From the IMG/VR virus record IMGVR_UViG_2529292919_000012: a stretch of DNA of 15,345 bases; one strand, written 5' to 3'. The stretch is from a virus. Lineage: Duplodnaviria; Heunggongvirae; Uroviricota; Caudoviricetes. Below are positions 7,876 through 10,800 of this stretch, piece after piece. A program made the position numbers. Position 1 is the stretch's first letter. Every line of letters begins with the position of its first letter.

Positions 7876-10800
7876 TCACTTGAGCTGAAGCCAGGCATTC
7901 TCCTTAAGCGACTTACCCGTCAGGCGACGTGCTGCAAGATGCCGCCAGTGCTGGAAATTGACTCTGCATTTAAATTTTATGACGAAAGACTTTGGGTGTT
8001 TGGCCTGACCGGAACGGCGAAAGCCGACAGGCTGATCGAAATATTCGACTACGCTCGCCGCCGATACGGCATCCAGTTATTCATCATCGACAGCCTGATG
8101 AAATGTGGCATAGGCGACGATGACTATAACGGGCAGAAGGCGTTTGTTGACTCGATTTGCGACTTCAAAAACAAAACAAACTCCCACGTCATTCTCGTTA
8201 CTCACTCGCGAAAAGGAGACAGCGAAGAAAAACCAACCGGGAAAATGGACGTAAAAGGCTCTGGAGCGATAACAGACCTGACAGACAACCTTTTCATCAT
8301 CTGGCGTAACAAGGCTCGCGAGAGAGCGTTACAGAGAGTTCAGAGTGGTGAAAAGATGTCAGAGAAGGACGAACAGCTACTGGCATCTCCGGCATCTGTT
8401 TTGATGCTTGAAAAACAACGTAACGGCGAAGGTTGGGAAGGTGGTGTCCCGTTGTTCCTTGACGAGCAATCGCACCAGTTCCTGCAACTTGAATCGGGAT
8501 CGCCATATAGCTACATCGCCAATATGCCGAAATCGGAATATGACGAGTCGTGGCGACAGGAAAACGTGACGGAGTATTAAATGACCATCTACATCACTGA
8601 GCTAATAACAGGCCTGCTGGTAATCGCAGGCCTTTTTATTTGGGGGAGAGGGAAGTCATGAAAAAACTAACCTTTGAAATTCGATCTCCAGCACATCAGC
8701 AGAACGCTATTCACGCAGTACAGCAAATCCTTCCAGACCCAACCAAACCAATCGTAGTAACCATTCAGGAACGCAACCGCAGCTTAGACCAGAATCGAAA
8801 GCTTTGGGCTTGCCTTGGTGACGTTTCGCGTCAGATTGAATGGCATGGTCGCTGGCTGGATGCAGAAAGCTGGAAGTGTGTGTTTACCGCAGCATTAAAG
8901 CAGCAGGACGTTGTTCCTAACCTTGCCGGGAATGGCTTTGTGGTAATAGGCCAGTCAACCAGCAGGATGCGTGTAAGCGAATTTGCGGAGCTATTAGAGC
9001 TTATACAGGCATTCGGTACAGAGCGTGGCGTTAAGTGGTCAGACGAAGCGCGACTAGCTCTCGAATGGAAAGCGCGATGGGGAGACAGGGCGGCATGAGA
9101 CGACAGCGACGAAGTATCACCGACATCATCTGCGAAAACTGCAAATACCTTCCAACGAAGCGCTCCAGAAATAAACGCAAGCCAATCCCAAAAGAATCTG
9201 ACGTAAAAACCTTCAACTACACGGCTCATCTGTGGGATATCCGGTGGCTTAGAGAACGTGCGAGGAAAACAAGGTGATTGACCAAAATCGAAGTTACGAA
9301 CAAGGAAGTGTCGAGCGAGCTTTAACGTGCGCTAACTGCGGTCAGAAGCTGCATGTGCTGGAAGTTCACGTGTGTGAGCGTTGTATATATGAATGCTTAA
9401 ATATGGTGGAACATAATGAGAAATATAAGCAACATAGACGAATTAAGAAATAAATTATCATATGATGATGTTTTAGGTGTACTTAGATGGAAAGTGTCTC
9501 CTTCTAATAATGCTAAGGTTGGCAGTGTTGCTGGTTACATTAGGAGTGATGGTTATAGGATGTTAACTATCGATGGTGTAATTACTTATGCTCACCACGT
9601 TATATGGATGATAAATAATGGTGAGATTCCATTAGGGTATAAAATTGATCATATAAATGGAGTAAGGTCAGATAATAGGCTATCTAATCTTCGATTGGTT
9701 ACACACCAACAGAATGCACAGAACCAAAAGAGAAAAATAACCAATTCGTCAGGAGTGACTGGAGTGTATTTCAATAAAGAGAGATGCAAGTGGATTGCGA
9801 ATATATGCGTAGATGGGCGCACCAAATATCTTGGAATATTTGCTAGCATCATTGACGCTATTGCAGAAAGGAAGAGGGCTGAAAAAGAACTGGGTTTTCA
9901 TGAAAACCATGGCAGACCATAACTGCGCAGAACTGATGAGCGATCCGAATAGCTCAATGTACGAGGAAGAAGACGATGGTGATTAGCCGATACGGAAAAA
10001 TAACGTTTAAACATTTTCAAGACAATCCAACATGGGCGGCTGCGGCTGGATATGACTTTAATTATTTTGATTGTCTGTCAGTCGCATGTATTGCAACTAC
10101 CAATGTTGCTAACAACATAATCGATGAATTCTTGGATTTTCCAGACTATCAGGTCAGAGAGTTGCCTGCATTTTTTGTGAAAGTATCTGTTGCTACAGCT
10201 CTGTTATTTATTTTGTTATTCGCATATCCATTGCTTGCCGTATTTGTTTATGTGAGATGCAAGCACTCACAAAATGAATACAGCGGAGAGCATACCGATA
10301 TTACCAGCCAAAATATGCGAGTGTGGTTGAGGAGATGCCAAGAGAAATGGGGGAGAAGTCATGGCTAACCTACGCAAAGAAGCGCGCGGAAGAGAATGCC
10401 AGGTACGTATTTACGGCATATGCAATGGAAATCCTGAAACTACAGTTCTGGCACATTACCGGATGGCTGGAATTTGCGGAACGGGAATGAAACCTGACGA
10501 CCTGATCGGCGCATGGGCTTGTAGTGACTGCCACGCGGAGATCGACCGACGCACAAGGATTCTCGACAACAAAGACGCCAGACTTTACCACCTCGAAGGC
10601 GTGATCAGGACGCAGGCGATACTGCTGAAGGAGGGGAAGATTAAGTCATGAACGAATATCAGTTTGTGCTTCCATACCCGCCGTCGGTGAACACCTACTG
10701 GCGAAGACGGGGAAGCCAATACTACATCAGCGATAAAGGCCAGAAATACCGAAAAAGACGTTCAGCAAATCATCCGCCAACTTTAGTTAGACATTTTCAC

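Follow-up and report, generated by a model that had tools for sequence, protein, structure and literature searches.

The window analysed here is the whole stretch of 15,345 nucleotides (nt) of the IMG/VR virus record IMGVR_UViG_2529292919_000012 (Caudoviricetes). It carries the nin operon of a lambdoid Escherichia coli prophage, and in this operon the coding sequence of ninF is interrupted by a 543-nt insert that holds the gene of a putative HNH homing endonuclease. The order of the genes is ninB (8640-9098), ninE (9095-9277), ninF (from 9274), a gene of 130 amino acids (aa), ybcO/DUF1364, rusA and ninH. Between positions 9100 and 10200 the window is 99.7% identical to a prophage of the enteropathogenic E. 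coli (EPEC) strain E2348/69 (NC_011601.1). The features of the interrupted gene are the following:

9274-9379, + strand: 5' part of ninF, from codon 1 to the first base of codon 36 (alignment with lambda)
9380-9922, + strand: inserted element, the putative homing endonuclease cassette, 543 nt with a guanine-plus-cytosine content of 35.5%, against 48% in the ninE/ninF flanks (alignment with lambda)
9274-9453, + strand: open reading frame (ORF) of NinF', 59 aa, made of the native residues 1-35 and 24 codons read from the insert (RCIYECLNMVEHNEKYKQHRRIKK, then the stop codon) (ORF calling)
9380-9415, + strand: leader of the endonuclease gene, 36 nt, which in the ninF frame gives Cys37 and most of the new tail
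9416-9922, + strand: endonuclease ORF, 168 aa, the one long ORF of the insert
9587-9721, + strand: HNH_3 nuclease domain, aa 58-102, with H60, D78-H79, N87, N91, N100 and N103 (Pfam, alignment with I-HmuI, Foldseek)
9749-9895, + strand: predicted AP2-like DNA-binding domain, aa 112-160 (AlphaFold2 model, Foldseek)
9923-9986, + strand: displaced 3' remnant of ninF, codons 38-57 and the stop codon, in frame from 9924

In order to define the junctions of the insert we used the alignment with lambda ninF (J02459.1), plus more than 100 ninF alleles that lack the homing endonuclease gene (HEG). At this site lambda ninF reads GTG TGT GAG CAC TGC TGC GCA GAA CTG. The window matches lambda through GTGTGTGAGC, with 9379 as the last shared base, and the homology restarts at CTGCGCAGAACTG in position 9923, right after the TAA of the endonuclease (9920-9922), to run as far as the ninF stop codon at 9984-9986. 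The insert comes after codon 35 of ninF and takes the place of 4 nt of lambda (ACTG); the repeat CTGCTGC leaves 1-4 nt of freedom in the position of the right junction. An earlier note on this DNA had located the insert at 9381-9922 and the displaced ninF codons at 9927-9986. Both ends were correct, and both starts have to be moved upstream: the insert begins one base earlier, at 9380, which makes it 543 nt long, and the codons from C38 onward begin at 9924.

The insert has the same orientation as the nin operon. The new codons of NinF' are codons 36-59, with the stop codon at 9451-9453, so that NinF' overlaps the start of the endonuclease by 38 nt. A Shine-Dalgarno-like GGTGGA lies at 9405-9410, 5 nt ahead of the endonuclease ATG, and in the ninF remnant a GAGGA at 9963-9967 doubles as the probable ribosome-binding site of the gene that follows. 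We found no convincing promoter or terminator belonging to the insert, the only candidate being a weak hairpin with a T-run at 9364-9379 that is created by the junction itself. With GGTGGA before its ATG and no promoter or terminator of its own, the endonuclease is expected to be expressed with the nin operon. An RNA hairpin over the start of the endonuclease (z=-2.7 in the window) was discarded because it is not predicted in the sister element L051 described below (z=+0.6). No Rfam family matched at E<=1 between positions 9000 and 10400, the ORF leaves only 36 nt of the insert uncovered and does not share the frame of ninF; therefore, the endonuclease gene is free-standing.

Regarding the protein, the 168 aa match phrog_99 ('HNH endonuclease') of PHROGs with 3e-70 and the Pfam family HNH_3 (PF13392) with 70.1 bits, well over the cutoff of 24.8 (E=1.2e-19, aa 58-102). 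In the alignment with 36 homologues there is no variation at H60, D78, N87, N91 and N103, and at least 90% of the sequences have H79 and N100. A loss of the HNH catalytic residues, which the earlier note had considered as a sign against its proposal, is itself refuted, since these residues are conserved among the homologues. The sole sequence match in PDB is the HNH motif of I-HmuI, where D74-H75 and N96 align with D78-H79 and N100. The AlphaFold2 model of the protein (predicted local distance difference test, pLDDT, 89.7) has 1u3e (I-HmuI) as its top Foldseek match, with a probability of 1.00 and E=1e-3, and both the model and the match indicate the beta-beta-alpha-metal fold of a solved HNH homing enzyme.

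The next Foldseek matches were AP2 domains of plant and Plasmodium transcription factors (7et4, 7wq5, 3igm and 1gcc), all of them over aa ~112-160. In this part the model has strands at 117-120, 125-132 and 135-142 and a helix at 145-159, and AtERF1 (1gcc) superposes on it with a root mean square deviation of 1.8 A in 49 columns (probability 0.99). Many homologues of the protein, with 35-50% identity (58% for one partial match), bear the Pfam family AP2 (PF00847). The label HNH-AP2 is valid at the level of the predicted fold and of the family. According to PMC10448857, the combination of HNH and AP2 is a recognised class of homing endonucleases. Thus, the lambda alignment, the clean insertion and the domain and fold matches bear out the idea of a free-standing HNH-AP2 gene inserted in ninF, as had been proposed from the sequence.

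The pair ninE-ninF is present in 2,163 of 5,426 complete E. coli genomes (3,634 places), and 45 of the 5,426 carry the insert, always under a NinF annotation; 44 of these copies are full length and one is interrupted by an insertion sequence (IS) of the IS3 type. In IMG/VR we found around 30 more loci with at least 98% identity, and 6 of 120 IMG/VR ninF loci, sampled arbitrarily, were HEG-plus. The insert is missing from all 413 phage records in which ninE-ninF is present, and among the proteins of sequenced phages none is more than 60% identical to the endonuclease. As the identical 543-nt insert with identical junctions recurs in 45 complete E. coli genomes and in around 30 IMG/VR contigs, this is no chance resemblance. 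The earlier note had suggested a search for the same gene in other phage loci, and this search returned the same element, at the same site of ninF. It had also considered a NinF with the variant C-terminus and no endonuclease gene, a form that we did not find in the 5,426 E. coli genomes or in the NinF protein clusters.

All 44 loci examined share the same junctions and an insert length of 543 nt, and one further locus shows a length change of 1 nt. Thus, there is a presence/absence polymorphism at one precise site, with 44 HEG-plus loci against more than 100 HEG-less alleles. Around the 19 haplotypes of the insert there are 12 classes of modules upstream and 9 downstream, and a single haplotype of 543 nt recurs unchanged in 6 contexts, so the same element sits in different genetic backgrounds. 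The genes located 3' of other HEG-plus alleles are ninG, a KilAC antirepressor, the 130-aa gene, a 70-aa gene and others. Furthermore, the flanks of the HEG-plus alleles bear several types of single-nucleotide polymorphism (SNP) that are also segregating among HEG-less alleles. The endonuclease ORF is open in all 19 haplotypes, which differ by substitutions only; the segregating sites are 17 synonymous and 12 non-synonymous (pN/pS ~0.19). The decayed copies are the one with IS3 and the 1-nt length variant, and such decay is what a homing cycle would be expected to leave. Judging from these substitutions, the endonuclease is under purifying selection.

We found a sole intermediate relative, the protein P0093 (84% aa identity), on a contig of 909 nt (L051:1-600, Logan SRR25288770). 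This sister element, L051, also sits inside a ninF, a divergent one. On its left side the junction reads CATGTTTGTGAG before and AAATGTATATATG after the breakpoint, and its NinF' terminates in IHVCEKCIYVLLNAGDDHEDNN and the stop codon, with a tail (KCIYVLLNAGDDHEDNN, then the stop) that is unlike that of the window. On its right side around 25 nt of the window sequence are missing, and the endonuclease ORF extends 8 codons into the ninF remnant (DPNGQMLEKDDG frame), which abuts ybcO. The two elements are identical in ~62% of the nucleotides of the leader and ~80% of those of the endonuclease ORF, and TGTATATATG and TTAAAT of the leader are conserved. Between both endonucleases dN/dS is 0.087/1.225 = 0.07. 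Because L051 lies in a divergent ninF and this ratio is so low, the association of the endonuclease with ninF is old and the protein has been under strong purifying selection all along. No close relatives were found in GTDB with one genome per species, and a scan of metagenomes together with a second scan of IMG/VR for intermediate lineages gave only 99% copies or relatives of at most 51%. A scan for the pattern of the left junction returned 91 matches in unrelated taxa, all apparently due to chance, and was discarded.

The explanation that we favour, with a probability of roughly 0.72, is that the 543-nt insert is a free-standing HNH_3 and AP2 homing endonuclease gene with an I-HmuI-like core that has invaded the ninF coding sequence of lambdoid phages; the homing itself is what we infer. 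As far as sequences can tell, HEG-plus and HEG-minus alleles at one site across many phage backgrounds are what is expected of a homing element. The gene would be transcribed with the delayed-early nin operon, in lytic growth or upon induction. In lambdoid genomes that infect the same cell or already reside in it, the enzyme would nick or cut HEG-less ninF at GAGC^ACTGCTGC or a few bases away from it, and lambda-type ninF (GTGTGTGAGCACTGCTGCGCAGAACTG) is its predicted substrate. The break would be repaired by recombination on the HEG-plus template, with arms of 107 nt on the left and ~64 nt on the right, and in this way the element would be copied in; the recombination functions would be provided by the lambdoid phage. 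Carriers would be immune because the insertion splits the site, and the 3' remnant of ninF would persist because it contains the right homology arm as well as the ribosome-binding site and the start of the next gene.

Several observations weigh against this explanation. The match to Pfam AP2 (PF00847, aa 112-143) is below the curated cutoff, with 15.5 bits against 33.3 (E=0.021). The element is rare (~1-5% of the ninF copies) and absent from isolated phages, and the copy in the window is housed in a decaying prophage, with an IS21 in the replication gene, an internal stop in rusA and a truncated Q. Every HEG-plus allele has the left flank of the GAGC type, in 24 distinct flank haplotypes, which is compatible with a single origin. 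Moreover, as ninF is 95-99% identical across contexts, the distribution can also be explained by one ancient insertion and mosaic recombination. The main rival, which we consider unlikely, takes up this point: the element would have entered ninF a single time, spread passively by lambdoid mosaic recombination and been kept for another benefit, e.g. cutting competing phages or resident prophages. Together with the common GAGC junction and the low frequency of the element, this reading is favoured by the free recombination of ninF and its neighbours, seen in the linkage equilibrium between the site haplotypes and the flanks, and the conservation of the ORF proves some function, not which one. 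However, purifying selection on a nuclease located inside its probable target is a classic signature of homing, the identical 543-nt haplotype in 6 contexts has only 107 + 64 nt of flank in common, the sister lineage is in the same gene and a role in competition is compatible with homing. It is very improbable that the HEG-containing form is ancestral and that lambda-type ninF arose from it by a precise deletion. Nothing specific points to this, HEG loss being a general part of the homing cycle, whereas the HEG-less allele is one continuous ORF with its 3' codons intact right after the endonuclease stop, the base composition of the insert is foreign and HEG-less alleles represent more than 95% of the copies, in all lambdoid groups. 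We also give next to no credence to a packaging nuclease (terminase-associated, similar to HK97 gp74) or to a nuclease encoded by an intron or intein. HNH proteins near the terminase genes are common in cos phages, but this gene is in the nin region, far from the terminase, and its HNH_3 and AP2 architecture is I-HmuI-like. An intron or intein origin was rejected for want of an Rfam match, of room and of a frame shared with ninF.

Another reading concerns the host gene. The earlier note had claimed that the insert gives NinF 24 new C-terminal codons with a CxxC...CxxC pattern and keeps the protein functional, and NinF' would then be a working variant with a replacement C-terminus, the 3' remnant being maybe expressed as a second piece (genes-in-pieces). 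Actually, the 24 codons are read in frame and C19xxC22...C34xxC37 is kept. NinF' is above the threshold of Pfam NinF (PF05810; 45.7 bits against a cutoff of 27.5, aa 18-42), and the same new tail is found on three different N-terminal modules of NinF. Cys37 comes from the first codons of the insert, where a Cys codon has a chance of ~0.027, and the open tail of 24 codons is slightly longer than expected, with a chance of 3-12%. Both HEG lineages have conserved C-x-x-C-I-Y and TGTATATATG, and the frame of the remnant is open for 57 codons with internal ATGs. However, beyond CIY there is no conservation between the tails of the window and L051 (ECLNMVEHNEKYKQHRRIKK vs VLLNAGDDHEDNN), and their lengths differ too. 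The net charge of the tail is +4 in NinF', -7 in lambda and -3 in L051. In HEG-less NinF the near-invariant cysteine is C38, not C37 (variants EHCC, SDCC, EASC, SDSC and EYCC), whereas NinF' has I38 and a basic tail in place of the conserved C38 and acidic tail. As for the two pieces, the 5' ORF is conserved; the 3' remnant has neither a Shine-Dalgarno sequence ahead of it nor a conserved start, the ATGs in its frame derive from the nuclease motif GFHENHG, and in L051 the endonuclease ORF is fused to it in another frame, so that its expression as a separate piece is not conserved. The growth of lambda in the laboratory does not depend on the nin region (nin5 deletion), and because of this the element can persist with no need for a functional NinF. 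We therefore regard the remodelling of NinF as quite unlikely: the NinF' tail is most likely a tolerated read-through in a dispensable gene, not an engineered replacement, and the part of the earlier claim about a functional NinF has weak support. The fourth cysteine that was kept (Cys37) is a possible sign of selection.

We also looked at the polymorphism of the target site, in 104 distinct HEG-less ninF sequences (loci L180-L299). In the core of ninF (codons 11-55) the minor-allele frequency is mostly 0.11 or less; it rises to 0.25 at codon 50, and a single outlier, the third position of codon 15, has 0.42. The sharp exception begins at the last base of codon 34 and extends to codon 36 (9374-9381 in the window), where the frequency is 0.33-0.43 at six of seven positions, and this patch abuts the insertion point. 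The patch has three haplotypes (GT GAG CAC, GC TCC GAT and GT GAA GCG), and each of them occurs with all the N-terminal modules, downstream SNP types and downstream genes, i.e. in linkage equilibrium. Furthermore, in five independent NinF clusters (P0037, P0050, P0051, P0078 and P0079) the 5' part of ninF runs into unrelated DNA, at the following places:

L175:2584-2612, L176:2590-2618, L177:2623-2650, L178:2584-2610 and L179:2584-2612: rearrangement junctions of ninF

The fusion partners are the P22-like tail-needle/gp7 region, gp20, the tail-terminator region, the region upstream of the holin and one unknown sequence. All five junctions fall within GAT|T|G| (~3 nt) of the TCCGAT or GCCGAT allele and lie on the right side of the insertion point, 2-4 nt away from it. 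In L175 the junction shows an imperfect microhomology with the parent sequence, TCCG(T)ATT.CTGC, and in L176 the first ~33 nt beyond the junction are absent from the nearest phage. Other aberrant forms of NinF break at codons 31, 33, 42 and 46. Allowing for detection bias, the clustering of the junctions has a p of roughly 1e-2 to 1e-3, for a pattern noticed post hoc, and it is suggestive as a signal of a cut site. I-HmuI nicks one strand 3 nt from its own insertion site, and by analogy such a distance would fit the breaks located 2-4 nt from the insertion point in ninF.

The polymorphic patch and the breakpoints may fit an enzyme that cuts near its own insertion site and meets resistant target alleles, and they could equally come from free variation of the x residues of the CxxC knuckle and slippage at the CTGCTGC repeat. 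A stronger version, in which ninF is a battleground of lambdoid prophages, the endonuclease cuts or nicks HEG-less ninF in vivo, GAGCAC, TCCGAT and GAAGCG are sensitive and resistant alleles under frequency-dependent selection and the deletion junctions are the scars of the breaks, seems rather doubtful to us. If it were true, a homing endonuclease would be shaping allele diversity and prophage decay across E. coli genomes, and if the enzyme causes both the polymorphism of the site and the cluster of breakpoints, bacterial genomes would bear the footprint of a homing endonuclease at the scale of populations.

The annotation of this locus is of practical interest. In RefSeq, the Prokaryotic Genome Annotation Pipeline (PGAP) often flags the intact endonuclease ORF as a partial pseudogene (L001:3461-3610, L015:1709-1762, L017:2060-2209, L018:1536-1781, and also in E2348/69), and it annotates two 'protein NinF' coding sequences flanking the endonuclease, the second one being the ninF remnant. 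Since translation gives a complete ORF, the pseudogene flag is an annotation artefact. E2348/69 (NC_011601.1) has three ninE-ninF places, one HEG-plus and two further copies. With the insert at only one of the three, potential target alleles may share the cell with the endonuclease gene.

Regarding the rest of the window, the gene that follows the ninF remnant lies outside the mobile element:

9976-10368, + strand: 130-aa gene of unknown function (phrog_2638), in the ninG position

This gene is AT-rich, its product has a hydrophobic central segment and no Pfam match, and the Klebsiella phage phiKp_30 has the same gene after an uninterrupted ninE-ninF. At ~5595-7396, on the - strand, an IS21-family element (IstB and an IstA/rve transposase) disrupts a toprim/helicase replication gene of 626 aa, of which only the C-terminal 375 codons are left as an ORF at 7453-8580. 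The gene rusA (10648-11010) has an internal stop or a frameshift and is a pseudogene in the E2348/69 annotation; its ORF product in the window is 95 aa long and ends in an aberrant tail rich in proline and arginine. A moron in reverse orientation, lpxR (lipid A deacylase, 319 aa; 11408-12367, - strand), lies between ninH and the Q antiterminator and adjoins the truncated antitermination gene.

The biology of phage homing endonucleases has been worked out almost wholly in lytic phages (T4, T5, SPO1 and ICP1). Lambda ninF bears the uninterrupted GAGCACTGCTGC allele, which is a probable target of this conserved and apparently functional endonuclease, and therefore homing, co-conversion, target-site resistance and prophage interference could be tested here by standard lambda genetics. 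Our literature searches on ninF with HNH and on the nin region with homing endonucleases gave no description of an endonuclease gene within ninF, in a literature where the name NinF is swamped by unrelated uses. The element is of an ordinary kind, but its target appears to be undescribed.

Among the known systems the best structural match is I-HmuI of the Bacillus phage SPO1 (PDB 1U3E). In both proteins the HNH core comes after an extended beta region at the N-terminus, and the catalytic residues D-H...N...N align. However, I-HmuI is intron-encoded and has a helix-turn-helix C-terminus, whereas the protein of the window is free-standing and has an AP2-like C-terminus, and the identity between them is only ~21%. 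The nearest relatives of the endonuclease in sequenced phages, from Klebsiella and Escherichia phages, are 46-51% identical.

In its architecture the protein resembles the HNH-AP2 homing endonucleases known from phages, cyanobacteria and ciliates (Magnani et al. 2004, cited by PMC10448857). The enzymes of this class, including the IPA-HNH of the vibriophage ICP1, have an N-terminal HNH and a C-terminal AP2 domain and are free-standing phage genes often located beside or inside other genes. The HNH domains of the ICP1 IPA-HNH proteins are too divergent for Pfam HNH_3, which the protein of the window matches strongly, and their genes cluster near essential genes of lytic phages, whereas the gene of the window is in a dispensable gene of temperate lambdoid phages.

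As for an endonuclease gene placed directly in a coding sequence with no intron or intein, and with 5' and 3' ORFs at its sides, the closest parallel is mobE in nrdA of the Aeromonas phage Aeh1, a 'genes-in-pieces' ribonucleotide reductase (Friedrich et al. 2007, cited by PMC10448857). There, neither piece is dispensable, and the two come together again as an active enzyme. In contrast, ninF is small and dispensable, its 5' piece gains a tail derived from the element and its 3' piece of 20 codons has no conserved expression signals.

Finally, other free-standing HNH genes are found in the nin regions of the same prophages (L003:3227-3751, L015:145-672, L016:99-710, L017:98-709 and L178:1199-1801), in positions upstream of ninB, between ninB and dam, and between ybcO/DUF1364 and rusA; the phages O276 and Dewey have an HNH gene after ninF. 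As several intergenic positions are occupied, the nin operon is a hot spot for HNH genes. These genes share the operon, the orientation and the Pfam family with the ninF insert, but they are intergenic, whereas the ninF insert is intragenic and alters the host protein.

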